DNA of 63,921 nucleotides, counting the filler, from Globobulimina sp. (taxonomy: Eukaryota): NCBI GenBank assembly GCA_003354225.1. It is 37 parts of 37 records of this genome, joined end to end, with 100 filler letters (N's around TTAATTAATTAA, not from the genome) between each part and the next. Parts side by side here need not be neighbours in the genome. Positions count along the whole stretch, not along the records: positions 44,999 to 46,628 come from PIVH01013880.1; 36 more parts are not named here. One strand, written 5' to 3'. Shown piece after piece: positions 1-63,854 of the stretch (positions are counted from its first letter, which is position 1; each line of letters opens with the position of its first letter). A program made the position numbers and the translations under genes. The notes under the pieces are model-generated. The model saw nothing but the letters and a program-made list of their open reading frames with translations, was not told the DNA's origin and made no database searches.

Positions 1-17
1 ATGCAAATAATAATAAC

Positions 18-683
18 ATGAACAACGTTTTTGAACGTAGAGGTTTGCATCATTTTGAGGAGAATAAGTTGACAAATCAAGTACAAATTTGTAGATCCGA
101 AAGATTCGTTGATTTTCATGATGGATTTAAACAATTGTTATGTTCAGGAAAACTAAAATATTTTATTTCTGAATTTTTTGGGGAAGAATGCGTATTATAT
201 AAAGAAAAAATTAATTATAAATATCCAAATTGTGGAACATTTAAAGCACATCAAGATGCGCCGGCATATCCAGATATAAATGAATCAATTTCATGTGCAA
301 TATCCATTGATGACACATGTGAGATATCTGGTTGTTTGCAAATTGCTAAAGGGAGACATAAAGAAGGAGTTATTGGGAAGAATAATGAAGGAATAATATG
401 TGATAATATTAGTGAAAATATTGAAAATCGTCAACCAATAATGTACGAGTCTCTATCAACAAAACCAGGCGACATTATTCTATTTGATGGATATGCGCCA
501 CATAAATCCGGTGAAAATAAAGGTAACAAAGCACGACGAGTTCTGTATGCAACATATAATCCGTTGTCTGAAGGTGATAAAAGAGATTGCTATTATAAAC
601 GTAAAAAAAAGGATATGTTGGATGGAAAAATAAGTTTAATTTTTGATTTTGATGGAAAAATTGTGTCTACAGTTGGAAAGTGA
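18..683 (+). CDS. PhyH-family Fe(II)/2-oxoglutarate dioxygenase (PhnY/TmpA-like), possibly 5' partial
   Basis: Motifs KEKINYK, AHQDAPAY (HxD), GDIILFDGYAPHKSGEN (distal His) and RRVLYATYN. Confidence 0.85.
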   Translation: MNNVFERRGLHHFEENKLTNQVQICRSERFVDFHDGFKQLLCSGKLKYFISEFFGEECVLYKEKINYKYPNCGTFKAHQDAPAYPDINESISCAISIDDTCEISGCLQIAKGRHKEGVIGKNNEGIICDNISENIENRQPIMYESLSTKPGDIILFDGYAPHKSGENKGNKARRVLYATYNPLSEGDKRDCYYKRKKKDMLDGKISLIFDFDGKIVSTVGK

Positions 684-19044: not shown

Positions 19045-20675
19045 TCCAAAGAATGGTACAATTTGTCATTAAAGATATCGACCCCCGTCGAGTCTACAAT
19101 TATTTGGACGATATTGTTATCATCGCGGAAACTTGGGACAAAATGAGCCAATTACTAGACCAAGTCCTCAAACGATTAGCTGAAGTCAATCTGAAACTCA
19201 AACCATCAAAATGCGAATGGTGCAAAACCGAAGTAATCTATTTGGGATTTCTAGTCAATGAAAACGGAATTCAAACGGACCCAGACAAAATTGCTGCAGT
19301 AGCAAAATGGCCAAGACCGACAACAGTCAAACAAGTCCGATCATTTGTTGGTTTTTGCTCATATTATCGACGTTTTGTCTACAATTTTGCTAAAATCGCA
19401 GCCCCACTTCACAAATTACTCAAAAAGGACTTGCCTTTCAAATGGGAAGATGATCAAGAAATGGCCTTCTTAGAACTCAGAAAACGATTGACCTCAACCC
19501 CCGTTTTGGCCTTTCCAGATTTCGATCGCCCATTCATACTTGACATCGACGCATCAGCAATCGCACTTGGAGCTGTTCTTTCCCAAGAAAATGAAAAGAA
19601 TGAAAGACGTCCCATTGCTTTTGTCAGTCGCTCAACTTTGGATTATGAAGGAAAATACTCAGCAACAGACGTCGAATGTTGTGGATTGGTGTTTGCACTC
19701 AACAAACTATGTGTCTATCTGTACCGTCACCAAGTAACCGTCATAACCGACCATCAAGCTTTACAGTGCCTTCAAAAGACCACTGAATTAAAGGGAAGGT
19801 TATATCGATGGGCTATGCAAATACAAGAGATCAATCCATTAATTGTTTACCGACCCGGAAGACTAAACGAACCTGCTGATGCTCTCTCACGAGTGGACCA
19901 AGAATATGAAGAACTGAAAGAAGGGGAAGTTTTAGGTGTATCAATGACTCCAATCGAACACGCCAAACCTTATTCGGAGCTTATCAAATCAGTCCCAACT
20001 GGTGGAGAAAAAGCAATTTTGGCAAGTCGACAAGTCAACACCAAAGATGATCGACCTCTCAACAGTCAACGACAACTCATACAATACCGAGTTCGATCAG
20101 TACTTAAATGGAGTGATGGAAATTACGAAGAAATTCGAAACCCCAAACCTCAACCTGAAATTGTAACGACAGCGCTCTTACGAGCCCAACAAGAAGCCCA
20201 ACGAAATTACCGTCAATTGCGAAAAACTCGCCAAGTATCTTTCAACGAAATCAAATCCACTCGCGATGAAGAAACTGAAATGGACGAAGAAACACAACCT
20301 ATTCGTGTTTATCAAATGGCCAAAAATGAACAACGACAAGATGAAGAATTATGCCAAATAATGGACTTTCTAAAAGACAACAAGTTACCATCGAATCAAG
20401 AAGAAGCAGCCAAAGTTGTCAAATTAAGTGATCAATACTTATTGTACAATGAAGTCCTATACTACGACCGGAATGAACAATCGGAATATTCCCATCAAAA
20501 CTTCAACATTCAACCAATGAGAGTCGTAGTACCTAAACATCTACAAGCTCAAATACTTCATCAAGCTCATGGTTCCGAAGTTTCTGGACATTTTGGTCTA
20601 AGCAAAGTTTACAAAAAGCTCAAACGGAAATATTGGTGGCGAAACATGAGAGGAGAATTAAAATTCCACATCCAC
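19045..20675 (+). mobile_element. pol: Ty3/Gypsy LTR retrotransposon pol fragment (RT, RNase H, integrase Zn-binding start)
   Basis: YLDDIVI, LKPSKC, VRSFVGFCSYYRRF, FILDIDAS..LGAVLSQ, ITDHQAL, ADALSR and AH..SGHFG in RT-RH-IN order. Confidence 0.95.
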
Positions 20676-27838: not shown

Positions 27839-29320
27839 CTATAGCTCGTGCTGAACCTGCAACCTTTCATCGTCGCCAGCCCATTTACCCTTAACTTTTA
27901 CAGCTACCATTATCATTAAGAACTTTAATAACCGCAGGAAGTGCTGCGGATACTTCAAGGTAAACTTCGTGTAATACCAACCAAGCCTGGGCCGTCGATA
28001 AAATGCCAGCAGCACATCGATATAATTAGCGTTTAACTCATCAATGCTCATCGAATCTGGCTCCCAGACAAAATTCATACCATTCATTTTTTCCCAATGA
28101 TCATCGCGAATATTCGTACCGTAAATATCGCGGTAAATCGATGAGCCTGGATAAGGCGTAAACTTTGTCAAATTCATAATGGTGAGTGGATGCTCCCGAA
28201 CAAAAGCCTTAGTCTGCTCAATGGTTTGTTTGTTTTCTCCAGGATAGCCGAGCATGAACAAGCCCTTGGAGCGAATACCGGCCTCATGCGCCCACTGTAA
28301 GGCTTGTATAGAGTGCTCTAGGTCAGCGGATTTCCCCATCTTCTGCAGTAATTCGTTAGAACCCGATTCCAAGCCAAAACTGATCTCCCAACAGCCGGCT
28401 TTTTTCATCATCGCAAGAACATCTTGTTTTAACACATCGACGCGCGAAGCACAGCTCCATGTGACATCCATTTTGTTATCGATAATCAACTGACACAACT
28501 CCATTGTTCGCTTACGACTTGCCGTAAACAGATCATCAACAAATAGTATGTGTTTTACACCATAGGCTTCCTGAAGATGCTGAATGAATTCAAACACCCT
28601 TTGAGGCGTATAGGCTCTTACCACATCACCAAAGGTCGATGTATCACAGAATTTACAATGAAATGGACAACCCCGCGATGCAGCAATAGAAGCAACAGGG
28701 CTTCTAGGAAAATCATAAACTGCTGGACGATAGCCCTCAGGAAAGTCTAGCAATAAATCCCAAGCAGGCATCGGCAATCTATCCAGATGCTTATCAATCG
28801 ACATCTTCGGCGTCGCGTTAATACAGATTGTGACAGCATTTTTGTCTCGGTATAACAAGCTGGGAACGGCTTTTATATCATTTCCGTCTTCCAATGCATT
28901 TAGCAATGCTACTAACACGTCCTCCCCTTCTCCAACGACAGCCAGATCAAACTCAGAAAACCGTTCCATGGTTTCTTTTCCCATTGATGAAATATGCGGA
29001 CCTCCAACAATGATAGTGATTTCAGGCTCGCGCTGCTTAACCTTACGAGCGATTTCGGACGCACTCCAAACGCCTACCGTAAACAGTGTAATGCCCAAAT
29101 ATCGTGGTTTTTCCTGCAAGACCTGATCGACAACATCGTCGACAGACAAATTGGCGATATCAGACTCAATGATACTGGGCTTGTATCCATGCTCACGCAC
29201 CATCGCAGCCAGGTGCAACAAACCTAATGAGGGTGATGCGTTAGTGATATGACGAACATACTCAAAGCTCTTTGACACTCTTTCATAGGGTGGCGTGACA
29301 AAAACAATTTTTTTATTCAT
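27839..29320 (-). CDS. Cobalamin-binding radical SAM enzyme, bacterial
   Basis: N-terminal B12-binding fold (PSLGLLHLAA, IIVGGPH, VVGEGE), SRGCPFHCKFC (CxxxCxxC), FVDDLF, GLESGS and FTPYPGS. Confidence 0.93.
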   Translation of the reverse strand: MNKKIVFVTPPYERVSKSFEYVRHITNASPSLGLLHLAAMVREHGYKPSIIESDIANLSVDDVVDQVLQEKPRYLGITLFTVGVWSASEIARKVKQREPEITIIVGGPHISSMGKETMERFSEFDLAVVGEGEDVLVALLNALEDGNDIKAVPSLLYRDKNAVTICINATPKMSIDKHLDRLPMPAWDLLLDFPEGYRPAVYDFPRSPVASIAASRGCPFHCKFCDTSTFGDVVRAYTPQRVFEFIQHLQEAYGVKHILFVDDLFTASRKRTMELCQLIIDNKMDVTWSCASRVDVLKQDVLAMMKKAGCWEISFGLESGSNELLQKMGKSADLEHSIQALQWAHEAGIRSKGLFMLGYPGENKQTIEQTKAFVREHPLTIMNLTKFTPYPGSSIYRDIYGTNIRDDHWEKMNGMNFVWEPDSMSIDELNANYIDVLLAFYRRPRLGWYYTKFTLKYPQHFLRLLKFLMIMVAVKVKGKWAGDDERLQVQHEL

Positions 29321-38126: not shown

Positions 38127-39708
38127 TGAATTGGTACACTGGAAATAGTATCACAAATTTAAATAATTTTGACAAAGTACGATTATACCATGGAATAACC
38201 ATGATACTTTTGTTTGGATTTGCATATCCGTCATCATCATTTGTTGCGCGATATTTAAGACATACTTTATGGTGGAAACAAGCCCATCAAAAAATTGGAT
38301 CCTTAGGTGTGTATACAATGTTTTTTTTGTTTTTATTTTTGAAAGATTTTCTCAAGTATAATAACTAGGTTTAATGACGAGTCTTACCTCAGCCTATTTT
38401 GCAATTAGTACCACAGCATCTGGTCAATATTCAATGCATGGATTATTGGGCATTGGTTGTGTGTTATCATTGTGCTTTCAGTTTACAGGTGGTTTTTGTG
38501 TTGGATATTGGTTTGAGCATTGGAAAAGAAACAAATGGTACAATAGGCTGCATTACAGCCATTTGCTGTTTGCAATCTTACTCAACTGCCTTGCGCCTGT
38601 AACTATGTGGTATGGCTGGCTCAGATTAGAACCTTATCATGTACCTGTTTTGCGACATTTACCTGTTTGGTTCAGTTATTTTGTATTGCTTATTATCATC
38701 GGCGAGATATACAAACGATATTATCCAACATGGTCTAAAAATAGCGAGTATTCGGCATTTGACTCGAATTACCATGTTCTTACATGGGATGAAATCGGTG
38801 AGAAAGTATCCGCCGGTGCGGCATGGATAATTATTGATAAATATGTGCTGGATATCACAGAATGGCAATTATCACACCCGGGCGGAAGGAAAATTTTATT
38901 GGATCATACTGGTACGGATTGCACCAAATTGTTCCATGGGACGCAGGCAGTTGGTGGTCTGCACAAATATGCACATTCGGAATGGGCTAAAAAACAAATG
39001 GCGCGGATGATTGTTGGAGAGGTTCCATCGCAAAAACAGAATTCGAACACACTTGAAAAAGGCTTCACAGATAGAAACTTCTCGAGATATGCGTCTGTTG
39101 TTGCAGCTGATATGAATGAGGACAGTTATGGGAAAACAGAAAGTGCTGAATTTGATCGTTTTAAATTGAATGCGTTTTTGGAGAATCATGAAACTGAGGA
39201 ATTAGTGGACTTGTTTGATAATATGGTGGATGCGGATAAGGAAACATTACTAAAACAGAAAGAAAGTGGATTATCCATTGCTGATTTAACAAAAAAACAA
39301 CACAAAATATCAGAAGCTAAACGCTTTCGAATTGTTAAATTGTTGAACAAAACAAAGATGTCCGCTGCCGATTGTAGCCGCCCAATTGTTTTATTAGAGT
39401 TTGATATTGAGGCAAAAACGAGGTTTTCTGCTGGTGACTATGTATTGTTACATAATACTGGCAAAGGAACCGTGTCAAGGTCGTATACACCAATACATCC
39501 AAACTTTATTTTATGTGATGATGGGAAACCATTACAAAATGAAAGAAATGAGAGGAAAAATAAAAAAAGAGGATGTTCAAAGTGTTTTGAGCGAAAACCG
39601 AAACCAACAGAGAGTGGAAGATTATTTTTATTGGTCCGGTTGTATAAGAAAGGAAGAATGAGCTCAATTATATCGTCATTGAATATAAATAATTCGTTGC
39701 GACTGACG
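38127..39708 (+). CDS. Cytochrome b561-cytochrome b5-FAD-binding reductase fusion; intron 38307-38368; partial at both ends
   Basis: Four transmembrane His (YHG, AHQ, MHG, SHL); b5 motif VLDITEW..HPGG..GTDCT..AHS; reductase motifs GDYVLL, RSYTPI and LVRLYKKGRMS. Confidence 0.85.
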
Positions 39709-44155: not shown

Positions 44156-44999
44156 AGTTTGAAAAAATGTACTGTAGTTTTTGATTTATTGTAATTTAAT
44201 TATAATACCATTATTACGGAACCTGCGGATTATGATTACGAAAGGTAGCTGTAGTTGGTAATAAATGACTAATTTATGCATCACCAGTAAGAATATGATG
44301 CATTAATTGCATATACAAAAAGAAATAAGAACAAACCAACACTATATACAATGGTGAAATTAACAGACACAAAACAACAAAAAAACAAAACAAAAAAACC
44401 CACAAAAATAAAAAACATAAACATAAATAGTCGACTATTATTCACAGATATGGCAAGAAATTTCAGAGTCATGCAATAAATCTAAAAAAAGGTTGTATGT
44501 ACAACTGAAGCAATATGCTGCACATATTTGCAAGTCAACAAATACTGTTTCCATTTGACATTATATTGTTTCTATCTGACAGTATAACATCGTCATATGA
44601 CCGTACATTGTCCACATTGTTTTGCAAATATCTGACAGTATAAATTGTTTTTGCAAACATCGTCCACATTGTTTTTGCAAATTAATGGTATTTGCAGCAC
44701 AATTGGTACAAAGACAGGCGCTCTACTTTAAGGTTTACCGTACGTATTTCTGGTTTCTTGCCAATATATATATTATACCTAAAACAGCTTTATCGTTGGT
44801 TTGATTATTTTCCACTTGCATTTTATGCAGTTTCTTAATTGATTCTTTAGTAACTTCTTCATTTGACCAAATCGAGTCGGAAGTTATTGGTTCCATAGNN
44901 NNNNNNNNNNNNNNNNNNNNNNNNNNNNNNNNNNNNNNNNNNTTAATTAATTAANNNNNNNNNNNNNNNNNNNNNNNNNNNNNNNNNNNNNNNNNNNNG

Positions 45000-46628
45000 T
45001 TAGAAGGCTGTAATTATTATACTGTTAAATCCGAAATGGATTTTAAGAAAAGAATGGTGAATGAATTTGATTTTATGTGTACTCCGCTTGTGTTTGATTT
45101 AACATTGAAACTAAAATCGGAAGGAAATAGCTGTTCGATACAAAATGTATTTGGCAGTGGAAAGGATGATGATGATGATAATAAACAGGGTGAAACATTA
45201 GATTTTGAACTGATGAATGTCAAAACATTGTTTCCATCCAAAACAGAAGGCGGTAGAACTAAAGGTGGTATTATTGTGATTAAATTAAAAAAAAATGTTC
45301 ACAGTCAATCAAACGTATTAAATTTTGAAATTGAAGTTAAATATAAAGATAAATACAAGAAACAGCATAAAAATGAACAGTTTGTAAGTTTTGGCAGTGA
45401 TACAGATAATGATCAGAAGGAAGCAGAGTGTGATTATTTTGATAATAATGGCATACGAAAAGCTATATTATTGTCGCGATTTGTATTTTTAATGAAACAA
45501 TGGATTAAAAATGATGGCAATGAAGGTGGAGAATTGAAAATTTCATCTGACTATAAATTAAAATTTAAAAGTTTTATGGATTATTTTAAGAATGAAATGT
45601 CAGAATTAAAAGATGATAGTTTAGAAAAAGAATTAAATGTTTTGCAAATATTATCGGATTCCGCTGCTGAACAAACATTAAATGAAAAGACAAAAACGAT
45701 TCAAACATTTGAATATAATATTAACGGCGGTGTCGGTTATTATTATTCCCCAAAAGCAGGTATATTAACAATGAAATATCCAGTTCAAAATGGTATTGTT
45801 ACAAATTGGGACGACACTGAAAAAATACTCCATAATACTTTTTATAATGAATTAAGAGTCGCACCCGAAGAACATGCTGTTTTTATTGCAGAATCCGCAT
45901 TAAATCCGAAGGCAAACAGAGAGAAAATAACACAAATTATGTTTGAAACGTTCAATGTGCCAAAATTGTTTTTAGGTAATCGGAATATGTTGGCTTTATT
46001 TGCAAGCGGTCTTACAAGTGGTCTTGTTATTGATTTTGGATTTGATTCATGTGAAATTGTACCAATTTATGATGGCTTTGTATTAAAAGATGCTGTGTTG
46101 TATGGAAGTATTGGCGGTGGTGATATAACGAGATATTTGCAAAAATTATTAAATGAGAATGGTCATTCACTCACTACATCGATGGAAAGGGAGATTGTAA
46201 GGGATATTAAAGAACAAATTGGTTTTATTGCATTGGATTTTGATAATCAAGAATCAAAATGTAATTATAATTCAGTTTCATATAAAATGCCTGATGGAAA
46301 CACAATAAATATAGGAATTGAACGATATAAATGTGGTGAGATATTATTTAAACCAGCATTGATTGGAAAAGAAGAGGATGGGATTCATAAATTAATATAT
46401 AAATCAATCATGAAATGTGATGTTAATATTCGAAAGATGTTATGGGATAACATTGTATTAACTGGTGGAACATCTCTATGTAATGGAATTAATAAACGGT
46501 TAATTAAAGAATTAAAAAAATTAATATCAGATTCAATGGATGTAAGAATTGTAAATATGACATCGGCAAAGGAAGAAAAACATTTTGGTTCTTGGATTGG
46601 TGGCTCAATGTTAGGTTCATTGTCAACA
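45000..46628 (+). CDS. vWA-associated (YfbK-like) region fused in frame to a divergent actin-like domain, partial at both ends
   Basis: GCNYYTVKSEMDFKKRM..EFDFMCTPLVFDL..VKTLFPS..GRTKGGIIVIKL, then from ~45750 GILTMKYP..GIVTNWDD..FYNELRVAPEEH..LNPKANREKITQIMFETFNVP..EREIVRDIKE..WIGGSMLGSLST. Confidence 0.85.
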
Positions 46629-47160
46629 NNNNNNNNNNNNNNNNNNNNNNNNNNNNNNNNNNNNNNNNNNNNTTAATTAATTAANNNNNNNNNNNNNNNN
46701 NNNNNNNNNNNNNNNNNNNNNNNNNNNNGACCATTATTATTTAATTCAAATTATTTTGATACAGTTGAAGAAATACTTGAAATGTCTCCTGTATGTCAAG
46801 AAACACGAATAATAATTGGCAAAATTTAAATGAAGATTAAAATAAATTGACATCCATTTTTATATTTTCGTTGTTGTTGTTTCAATTAATAAACAGGCAG
46901 TGTTTCAAAAACGAAATGTTTTCAAATCAAACTGTAATTTTAAAAACAATGTAGCAGCGCCAATCAATATTTCAGGTGGATGAGTTAAAATTTTTTTATC
47001 CATATTGTGACGTCTTGTTTTATCACTTGGATTTATAAATGCTTCCTGATAACAATCATCATCTGTATCTGTATCATATAATATTGCTGTTTGCCATGGG
47101 TGGAACTAAACGGTCATGTTTTTGATGAGAGAAAAGATTTTCAAATCACTTTAGTGCACA

Positions 47161-62292: not shown

Positions 62293-63854
62293 TGCTCCCT
62301 CTGTTACACTACTTATCAACCGTTCACTGGCAGAAGGTGTTGTCCCAGAAGAATGGAAATTGGCCATTGTGTCACCTATTCCAAAAGTGAAAAATTCCAC
62401 CAATCCTTCATATTATCGACCAGTTTCACTACTTTGCATTATTTCCAAAATTGCTGAACGTTGTTTTGCAAGAAACCTTGGCCCATTAATTAATGACAAA
62501 TTACCTCAAATGCAGTATGGCTTTAGACAATGTCGGTCGACAGAAGATGCCCTGGGTCTACTTGAACATAAAATACTCAGCTGTTTCAATCAATGTTCTG
62601 GCACTACAAAAGTATGTGGCGTTTTCTTTGATCTATCTAAGGCATTTGGTAAGGTGCCTGTTGGACATCTGCTGACTGTCTTAGAAACAACCTACATGAT
62701 ACCACCAGGAGCCATGCACTGGTTGCGATCTTACCTTACTGAACGTAAACAAGCTGTGCGTGTAAACGGGAATATGTCCAGTGTGCGCAATGTCATCTCA
62801 GGAGTCCCTCAAGTTTCAGTGCTTGGGCCTATGCTGTTTAATGCATATTCAGCTCCTGCCTTATTACTGCAGTTGTCACCTGGTGCTTCATGTATTGCTT
62901 ATGCAGATGATGTAGTGTATGTGAAGAAAGCGGAATTTGGATTTGAACAAGCCGATATTGTCAAAGATGCTAATGCAATTGCCAACTGCTTCACATCCCT
63001 TGGACTACCTATCAATGTTAATAAAACTGTGGCAATGCTATTTTCTTTGTCTAACACAAACGTTCAGTTTGACATTCAGCCATCTTTGTGTGACAAACCA
63101 CTAACTGTTGTTACAACCATCAAATATCTTGGAATCTGGCTTGATCCAAAACTCTCATGGTCCATTCACTCTCATAAAGCTGCAGCAAAGAGTCGCCGAG
63201 CTATTGGGGCCTTTTCCCGACACTGCCGAAATTATGTTCCTAAACCTGTTTTTTGTCATCTTTACAAACAAGTCATTCTACCATCCCTCTTATATGGCCT
63301 CTGTGTTGCCTATCCAGTCAATGTGAATGACTGTAATCGTTATGAACGTGTCCAGCTCTATGCGGCAAGAACGGCCAGCAACTGTTTTAATTTACCACCT
63401 GATGAATTATTATCACAACTCAAATGGAAGTCGATCTCCAAAATTGTCCAAGAAAGAAGATTGATTTTAATACATGACTATCATCATGGCATCCGTTATC
63501 TGCCAGAAGGAATTCTTTTATCTCAAAATGACTTTGTTGGCCGAAATACACGTGCCCGTCAGCAGATTGGAAATGACTTCACTTATGATCGTATGTTCCC
63601 TACTCGAGGTCGTTGTGGGCGTGGTTATTTCATGGATGCTATTGGTCTCTGGAACAATCTGACTAATGATCAAATTGGATTAAATAAACGTGATTTCAAA
63701 CAATTTGTGAAGAGGAAGAGATAGAATGATTTTAGTATTTGTCTTATTGTTTTATAATAGCTAACAATCCTATTTTATATTAGCAGTGCTATATAACAGT
63801 CTGTATAGATTCTTTTAGCACTTTAATAAAGTTTGTCTGTCTGTCTGTCTGTCT
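62293..63854 (+). mobile_element. Non-LTR retrotransposon 3' end (RT ORF2 to 63724, 3' UTR, (TCTG)n tail); CR1/L2-like
   Basis: YRPVSLL, QYGFR, FFDLSKAF, SGVPQ.SVLGP, YADD and KYLGIWLD motifs; AATAAA followed by gtctgtctgtctgtctgtctg. Confidence 0.93.

Follow-up and report, generated by a model that had tools for sequence, protein, structure and literature searches.

What kind of gene places an actin sequence that lacks its first ~50 residues directly behind the end of a von Willebrand factor A (vWA) protein, in one reading frame? The question is raised by a single contig (PIVH01013880.1) within a 63,921-base stretch of DNA from Globobulimina sp. (assembly GCA_003354225.1), which was analysed as a whole and is referred to here as the window. 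A sequence-only reading of this stretch had described one uninterrupted frame running from the tail of a vWA-family protein into actin, from about residue 53-62 to about 350, with actin residues 1 to ~52 missing from the contig. It proposed that a whole vWA protein might be inserted in the DNase I-binding loop (D-loop) of an actin whose N-terminus lies further upstream, or alternatively that a truncated actin is used as a domain. We report that the contig comes from the interior of a genuine vWA-in-actin gene. The split-actin/vWA design to which it belongs is apparently undescribed and occurs in at least three named foraminiferal genera (Ammonia, Nonionella and Bolivina).

The window consists of 37 contigs of ~1.63 kb each, joined by 36 artificial spacers (N44-TTAATTAATTAA-N44). 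The pieces on either side of 44999-46628 are unrelated contigs, and neighbourhood across the spacers is meaningless. The vWA-actin locus is confined to this single 1630-bp contig, the only one in the window matched by tblastn with five relatives. Its frame from 45000 is open at both ends and contains 543 codons and no stop, the remaining five frames containing 19-79 stops each; given the base composition of the contig, a stop is expected about once per 10 codons and the probability of none in 543 codons is ~10^-23.8. Residues 249-543 of the translation match Pfam Actin (PF00022) over positions 53-386 of 410 (E 4.1e-89; 299.4 bits against a cut-off of 27), and residues 246-543 correspond to actin 55-351 in an alignment to solved actins (E ~1e-99). 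No Pfam or NCBIfam model matched residues 1-245. This part matched the C-terminal third of vWA proteins carrying PF00092/PF13519 (274 of 877 candidates at E <= 0.001), with matches to non-fused vWA proteins starting from E ~1e-39; many of the matches are bacterial or archaeal, and several are named 'Ca-activated chloride channel family protein/homolog' by JGI. The G+C content at third codon positions is similar on both sides (0.21 in the vWA tail part, 0.19 in the actin part). The continuous frame, the extent of the actin sequence and the absence of its beginning from the contig were all as the sequence-only reading had described. The features of the contig, in window coordinates, are as follows.

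44899-44998, no strand: artificial spacer N44-TTAATTAATTAA-N44, 5' of the contig.
44999-46628, plus strand: the 1630-bp contig, a fragment of the vWA-in-actin gene, with one frame from 45000 and 543 codons (protein P0001).
45000-45080, plus strand: residues 1-27, end of the vWA domain (last strand and helices), aligned to residues 479-505 of the relative P0122.
45081-45392, plus strand: residues 28-131, beta-sandwich of the module tail, with conserved TPLVFDL and TLFPSK and a poly-Asp loop.
45408-45659, plus strand: residues 137-220, helical end of the module, with three long helices at 150-220 and the motifs FDNNGIRK and ELNVLQIL.
45660-45734, plus strand: residues 221-245, variable, low-confidence linker from module to actin; predicted local distance difference test (pLDDT) <50 at 224-233.
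45729-45767, plus strand: junction motif GVGYYYSPKAGIL, a degenerate copy of actin ~52-65, kept in 12 of the 12 family rows that cover it.
45735-46628, plus strand: residues 246-543, actin 55-351, comprising subdomain 2 from the strand that follows the D-loop, all of subdomains 3 and 4, and the greater part of subdomain 1; ends at the contig edge.
45789-45791, plus strand: Asn at actin position 73 (His in conventional actin).
45981-45983, plus strand: Arg at actin position 137 (catalytic Gln in conventional actin).
46032-46046, plus strand: DFGFD replacing the phosphate-2 loop DSGDG; D154 and G156 are retained, and positions 155, 157 and 158 are altered.
46053-46055, plus strand: Glu at actin position 161 (His in conventional actin).
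46629-46728, no strand: artificial spacer, 3' of the contig.

The piece of actin that the contig lacks is present in its relatives. The five best matches to the 245-residue tail (P0002-P0006) carry Actin too, and a search among longer proteins gave seven matches, five of which carry both vWA and Actin and measure 999-1090 residues. Full-length proteins with both domains are P0122-P0126, P0129 and P0130, the last two obtained via cluster look-ups; each contains two stretches of Actin according to Pfam. Two N-terminal fragments, P0006 and P0134, run from actin 1-~55 into the vWA module, and in P0134 positions 5-45 of the Pfam Actin model are matched upstream of the vWA domain (31.1 bits, cut-off 27). 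Transcriptomes of three genera contain the combination: P0129 derives from Ammonia sp. (MMETSP), P0124 and P0125 from Nonionella stella, and P0006 and P0007 from Bolivina argentea. Other family members are ENA, JGI or Logan records, and all named members are foraminiferan. Altogether 14 of 271 collected proteins are of the fused type. Seven further proteins, among the 21 of 271 flagged by thresholds, were dropped; they have no C-terminal part of actin, and none of the seven gave a Pfam Actin match. A profile search of 1.84 billion representatives returned P0124, P0003 and the N-terminal half P0134 as the fused-type entries among its 150 best rows, the rest being actins or vWA proteins. Metagenome contigs scanned with the family alignment yielded no fused DNA among the best 80 of 108 confirmed stretches, all of which were module-only (query residues 10-722).

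The family alignment (A1, 13 members) defines a common architecture. A ~90-residue beta-grasp-like domain, absent in P0126, and an acidic linker come first, followed by actin 1-~55 with the pattern VIDxGSYxxKxGFxGDD...VGRPRHxGVMVGMGQKDAYVGG, in short VIDxGSY...RPRHQGVMVGMGQKD. The module then extends from GFSVGGAKDxNNFR through the vWA domain (DISGSM, GGT, LTD) to ...ELxILxxL and a variable linker, and the protein ends with actin from xGxGYYxSxKxGILSMKYP to the usual C-terminus ...IVHRKC. The inserted module measures ~550-620 residues (60-70 kDa), and the C-terminal actin piece covers ~52-375. In order, the parts of the module are a pre-vWA region, the vWA domain, the beta-sandwich and the helical end. 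In a second alignment, of the family with 13 ordinary actins (A2), the N-terminal piece stops at actin ~55 (~48 in P0126) and the C-terminal piece resumes with a degenerate copy of ~52-55. The alignments place the insertion site at the C-terminal base of the D-loop or just behind it, with a short xYVG duplication and the D-loop itself almost unchanged. A whole vWA protein with an actin N-terminus upstream, as first proposed, is thus what every full-length relative carries, with the qualification that the site is not the middle of the loop. P0134 (N-terminal half) and P0002 (C-terminal half) both lie on one ENA contig of 5449 bp and are probably one gene broken by an intron or a frameshift. We hold with high confidence that the split-actin architecture is real and characterizes a family of proteins of ~1000-1090 residues.

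Two members show irregularities of their own. P0122 and P0123, both from JGI, are near-identical for ~650 residues from the N-terminus and diverge from there on, in the last part of the module and throughout the C-terminal part of actin, which could reflect alternative 3' halves, recent recombination between paralogues or a join made by the assembler. P0129 from Ammonia contains a ~43-residue repeat at the end of the vWA domain (alignment columns ~590-633) that could be a tandem duplication or a transcript-assembly artefact.

Structure prediction indicated that the two pieces of actin belong together. An AlphaFold2 model of P0122, generated from a 68-row alignment, had a mean pLDDT of 76.9 and a predicted template modelling score (pTM) of 0.44; the C-terminal part of actin scored >90 and the N-terminal part 86-92, and the linkers at the two junctions (138-157 and 706-729) scored <50. 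Superposition by VIA-align on actin 6nbw_A gave Z 52.2 and a root-mean-square deviation (rmsd) of 1.6 A over 357 of 367 residues, model residues 99..1041 corresponding to actin 2..375; the Foldseek local alignment to actin comprised 323 columns of the C-terminal part only. In the model of this relative the two actin pieces are predicted to build one complete actin fold, in which the N-terminal piece would fill the place of the N-terminal strands.

The junction itself was recovered independently. The contig, in whole or in part, is present in seven run rows from three studies, and contigs of four runs from these three studies bridge the junction near 45735: X1 record 3 (45602-45944, 1 difference), X2 record 13 (45528-45944, 5 differences), X6 record 20 (45640-46063, 24 differences) and X7 record 31 (45648-46628, 44 differences). 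X1 is possibly the window's own sample; X2 and X6/X7 are from other studies. The X6/X7 copy is ~5% diverged from that in the window. Of 34 listed differences (out of 34 plus 31 further ones), third codon positions account for 21, and 19 leave the amino acid unchanged, a pattern expected of a constrained coding sequence. Contigs of other runs also reach ~1.28-1.30 kb upstream of 44999 (X2 record 9, ~1284 nt; X7 record 25, ~1304 nt). With the junction bridged in three studies and its motif kept in the relatives, the vWA-actin joint is not an assembly chimera.

Three other origins of the joint were considered and set aside. An intron read through by chance does not agree with a junction that is conserved as protein in the transcripts of other species; a transcript-assembly artefact does not agree with fusions found within open reading frames of genomic contigs; and the two ends of the module lack the motifs of an intein-like element. 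Contig depth rises by orders of magnitude at 45824-45988 and 46319-46483 in all four runs, because abundant other actin genes share words with these conserved stretches, and the rise does not reflect this gene.

We then asked what the inserted module is. PF13519 and/or PF00092 matched all three relatives that were scanned (P0122, P0125 and P0126), and the motifs of a metal ion-dependent adhesion site (MIDAS), DISGSM (DNSGSM in P0125), GGT and LTD, occupy conserved columns of the family alignment; the window holds only the last ~27 residues of the vWA domain. Compared with solved structures, an actin-free profile of the module (A4) matched vWA domains only, including those of ITIH4 (E 1.5e-12), ITIH1, BatB, calcium-channel alpha2-delta, 8s05_A (E 2.3e-5) and CLCA1. 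Species genomes contain at least 570 loci for relatives of the module, which are 32-41% identical to the query across its residues ~44-598; the genomes include those of DPANN and methanogenic archaea, Clostridia, Campylobacterota, Patescibacteria and further lineages. An hhalign comparison with an open reading frame bearing YfbK_C gave a probability of 98.5% (E 2e-15); the 271 aligned columns begin at the pre-vWA motif, take in the vWA domain and stop where the tail starts. When features of the tail derived from a language model were compared in the Atlas, 25 of 30 matches fell in YfbK_C clusters (score 0.92). The Pfam YfbK_C model (PF12034) did not match the tail at E <= 10. The same model misses the module genes in four of four prokaryotic genomes that carry one, with controls matched. 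Judged by sequence, the module is a complete protein of the YfbK/K07114 kind, which is common in bacteria and archaea. The label 'YfbK-like' given to it earlier holds for the wider family, on the hhalign and Atlas results, and is unproven for the tail domain.

The 245-residue tail encoded in the window was modelled separately (pLDDT 79.3) and is predicted to form a pair of short helices, then a beta-sandwich (strands 31-131) and, at 150-220, three long helices. The best folds that cover most of it are Sec24, the ArnB paralogue 5a8j and the ArnAB complex 8s05 (Foldseek E 0.014-0.03). VIA-align superposed 156 residues on 8s05_B with Z 7.4 and rmsd 4.6 A, a range (Z <8) that may indicate no more than a common arrangement, and the top rows of a wide VIA-align search with the tail were generic helical bundles with Z <= 7.9. 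A predicted complex of two module copies (P0122 250-705) scored 0.07 against a mark of 0.32.

In a tree of 56 modules computed by a quick method, all 16 modules from a eukaryotic context, together with six rows presumed to be prokaryotic, lie on one side of a branch with a Shimodaira-Hasegawa-like approximate likelihood ratio (SH-aLRT) support of 97, and the other 34 lie on the opposite side. Three of those six rows later turned out to be a EukProt protein (P0166), a DnaJ fusion (P0235) and a Logan record (P0019). The topology is compatible with a eukaryotic module that arose once and was then shuffled.

The eukaryote-type module is also joined to many other proteins in foraminiferal transcriptomes and other contigs, as listed here by partner.

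Snf7: P0160, P0274, P0285.
14-3-3: P0178 (Elphidium), P0278, P0279, P0280, P0283.
Formin FH2: P0176.
Clathrin heavy-chain N-terminus: P0184.
AP small-chain or longin domain: P0189.
AP-mu subunit: P0021.
UEV domain (Tsg101-type): P0008.
Tubulin_C: P0282.
Ribosomal protein P0/uL10: P0275.
DnaJ: P0286, P0235.
SAM: P0011.
PDZ: P0292.
WD40: P0289.

In P0021 the module appears to be inserted after the apparent first strand of the mu-homology domain; in P0160 it seems to be preceded by the Snf7 core and followed by a C-terminal tail resembling a MIM motif. The vWA-in-actin protein thus belongs to a wider group of core proteins tagged with the module. It is conceivable, though we put it forward as a doubtful extension, that this set constitutes a lineage-wide foraminiferal system in which one prokaryotic-type vWA module, a single eukaryote-context clade, is fused to or inserted in many abundant self-assembling proteins of the cytoskeleton, of membrane traffic and of housekeeping, either wiring them to a common MIDAS-dependent partner or scaffold or making them surveillance baits.

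The actin part carries a characteristic pattern of loss and retention. Catalytic and phosphate-binding residues of conventional actin (Q137, H161, DSGDG) are R137, E161 and DFGFD in the window; these replacements and H73N, all called by the sequence-only reading, were reproduced in our alignments and are typical of the family. Taking four conventional actins from the search matches as reference, G15 is replaced by Tyr in all eight sequences that include the N-terminal part, with S14 and K18 retained in six of six. Q137 and H161 are each retained in one of ten members, P0126 both times, and H73 in two of ten. D154 and G156 are retained in ten of ten members and D157 and G158 in none of them; E214 and G301 are likewise present in all ten, K213 and G302 in eight and K336 in six. 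Residues were also compared in sets, which we take to represent the nucleotide site and the longitudinal and lateral contacts of the filament literature. The nucleotide-site set is retained at 11-16 of 25 positions, and the D-loop (40-50) is the same as in conventional actin at 9-10 of 11 positions. Longitudinal contacts outside the D-loop are retained at 22-40 of 46 positions (27 of 46 in the window copy, three positions of which lie past the contig end), and lateral contacts at 14-23 of 28 in six full-length members and 12-20 of 27 in four members known from the C-terminal part only. All other positions are retained at 130-155 of 261 (50-59%) in the six full-length members. Ordinary actins and actin-related proteins (ARPs) conserve their nucleotide site best of all; in this family that site is kept no better than background, or less well, and the D-loop ranks first. 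The earlier suggestion that the protein is non-hydrolysing would fit the changed Q137, H161 and phosphate loops. That it is non-polymerising found no support, the D-loop and many filament-contact positions being retained.

A tree of the actin parts was computed by a quick method from 50 rows, 10 fused and 40 picked from 84 unlabelled actin-like representatives with no labelled ARP among them; P0129 and P0005 were omitted as cluster mates. Nine of the ten fused actin parts form a clade of their own (SH-aLRT 87), in which the window protein adjoins P0002; P0126 lies one level further out, grouped with two other divergent actins. A single origin of the fused actins is possible on this tree and not proven by it. 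Two unfused divergent actins near the fused clade, P0240 and P0268, have other insertions, of which one lies in the plug region and one takes the place of much of subdomain 2.

From these features we derive a tentative proposal, namely that the protein may be a non-enzymatic actin-fold subunit that anchors filaments via a vWA adaptor. In actin, Q137 and H161 position the attacking water, and because Q137, H161, G15, D157 and G158 are replaced in the family, actin-like ATP hydrolysis would not be expected; the actin fold would act as a non-hydrolysing subunit. Because the D-loop is kept letter for letter and the contact regions are well kept in several paralogues, the fold could still meet other actin subunits, and it would dock onto, or build into, ordinary actin filaments in a non-enzymatic role. 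Subdomain 2 lies at high radius in the filament. The vWA module would hang from it on two flexible linkers, and the metal-dependent (MIDAS) adaptor displayed in this way would tie or cross-link filaments to a ligand. Positions along the filament, at its end or as a seed would all be compatible with the proposal. The explanation as a whole, a real split-actin gene with the anchoring role as its tentative part, appears likely to us.

Several points weigh against this reading. A module of 60-70 kDa beside the D-loop could sterically block the D-loop's own contact, and the retention of longitudinal contacts is uneven across paralogues (22-40 of 46). The arrangement of domains in the P0122 model is uncertain, given the pTM of 0.44 and the low pLDDT of the linkers. 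The upstream actin piece of the window's own gene lies outside the contig and is thus unseen. Finally, no run among those containing the contig is recorded as RNA (X6 and X7 are at best presumed to be), and transcript support comes from relatives only.

Among the other explanations, one that we consider unlikely, and that survives best, makes the protein a seed or nucleator: the module or the N-terminal beta-grasp-like domain would oligomerise, gather two or more catalytically dead actin folds and template filaments in the manner of Arp2/3, remaining at their ends. Loss of catalytic residues with retention of contact residues is as expected under this explanation, and the module is also joined to the self-assembling Snf7, clathrin, formin, tubulin, SAM and 14-3-3. 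Feature matches of the N-terminal domain include PB1, TDP-43_N and CIDE-N, all at scores <0.9 and to be taken as leads only; these three are beta-grasp oligomerisation domains. The kept D-loop, however, suggests a subunit on the pointed side too, so that incorporation into filaments would fit better than a terminal template.

Rather less probable still is that the work is done by the vWA module, with actin and the other partners serving as decoy copies of pathogen targets that report attack. The partners considered (14-3-3, ESCRT parts, AP-mu, clathrin, ribosomal P0, tubulin and DnaJ) are largely frequent targets of toxins or viruses, and a decoy may lack enzymatic activity, consistent with the dead ATPase site. 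However, no immune-type effector or signalling domain was found in the scanned family members, the prokaryotic relatives of the module belong to none of the tested defence families, and the strict retention of the D-loop would be explained equally by ordinary actin contacts.

Comparably improbable, and if anything marginally more so, is a window gene with no upstream actin, in which a vWA protein uses a truncated actin (~53-375) as its C-terminal domain. The contig does begin within the vWA module with the N-terminal part unseen, and some relatives are likewise known as C-terminal parts only, P0002-P0004 from within the module tail and P0005 from within the vWA domain. Yet every sufficiently long relative (seven full-length proteins and two N-terminal fragments) has the N-terminal part of actin, and the window protein groups within the fused clade beside P0002, which shares its ENA contig with the N-terminal half P0134, most simply as one split gene. 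The actin fold also requires its N-terminal strands, and contigs of other runs continue ~1.28-1.30 kb upstream of 44999. An assembly chimera or a decaying pseudogene with no functional product, for which the high fragmentation of the assembly and the absence of a recorded RNA run might speak, is very improbable and already largely refuted by the spanning of the junction in three studies, the 543 stop-free codons where one stop per ~10 is expected, the junction motif kept in 12 of 12 rows and the third-position bias of 21 of 34 differences in the diverged copy.

Other contigs of the window contain features of separate interest. Retroelement fragments are found at 19053-20675 (reverse transcriptase, RNase H and integrase zinc-binding domain) and at 62360-63724 (reverse transcriptase). 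An open reading frame at 27839-29320 on the minus strand encodes a B12-binding radical-SAM protein; the G+C content of this piece is 0.36-0.38, above most of the window, and the frame may be bacterial in origin. At 38374-39708 an open reading frame with matches to cytochrome b561, cytochrome b5 and FAD-binding oxidoreductase ends at the contig edge.

Full-text literature searches did not find the vWA-actin architecture, which supplements and the 2014 Reticulomyxa genome paper may still mention. A survey of rhizarian cytoskeletal genes covers actin paralogues, and the word vWA is absent from the portion of its text available to us (PMC5455982). The conserved D-loop with a complete MIDAS protein behind it, in a protein that appears to have given up catalysis, amounts to a natural experiment on the tolerance of the actin fold, and the family illustrates a way in which filaments might be anchored with no additional adaptor protein. 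Few eukaryotic proteins are as conserved as actin, and the D-loop is central to its filament contacts. Foraminifera form very large, fast pseudopodial networks and shape their shells with actin, and the molecular parts list behind these activities is almost unknown. If true, the presence of one prokaryote-type module on a dozen core proteins would be a rare instance of large-scale domain shuffling after a likely gene transfer.

Compared with known systems, the family stands closest to conventional actin (PF00022), with which both pieces share 60-62% identity, a complete predicted fold, and a recognisable D-loop, plug region and C-terminus. It differs from conventional actin in being split by a ~550-620-residue module after residue ~48-55, in the G15Y change and the replacement of Q137, H161, D157 and G158, and, in most members, in an added N-terminal domain. 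ARPs such as Arp5 and Arp8 likewise have an actin fold in which nucleotide-site residues are changed, carry lineage-specific insertions and serve as non-polymerising or specialised subunits; to our knowledge their insertions are loops or small elements and never a complete multi-domain protein. Unlike Arp5 and Arp8, the actin of the family is much nearer to conventional actin and its D-loop is intact. Bigelowiella natans, a rhizarian, has a ubiquitin-actin fusion in which a cleavable ubiquitin is carried on a normal actin. Both are actins with a ubiquitin-like N-terminal addition, but the N-terminal domain of the family matched no ubiquitin model (Atlas leads <0.9 only) and its actin is split by the vWA module.

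On the side of the module, YfbK/K07114-type vWA proteins share the same order of pre-vWA motif, vWA domain with MIDAS and beta-rich tail, whereas the family module is intracellular, is embedded in host proteins and belongs to its own eukaryote-context clade (SH-aLRT 97). Its likeness to the ArnB/Sec23-Sec24 core, a vWA trunk with a beta-sandwich, is a resemblance and not a membership, at scores where unrelated folds also fall. The integrin alpha-I domain, a vWA domain inserted in a loop of a beta-propeller, provides a parallel in design, since there too a loop of the host domain carries a vWA/MIDAS unit that serves as the ligand-binding head; in the foraminiferal family, by contrast, actin is the host, a whole protein of three parts has been inserted, and all of it is cytoplasmic.

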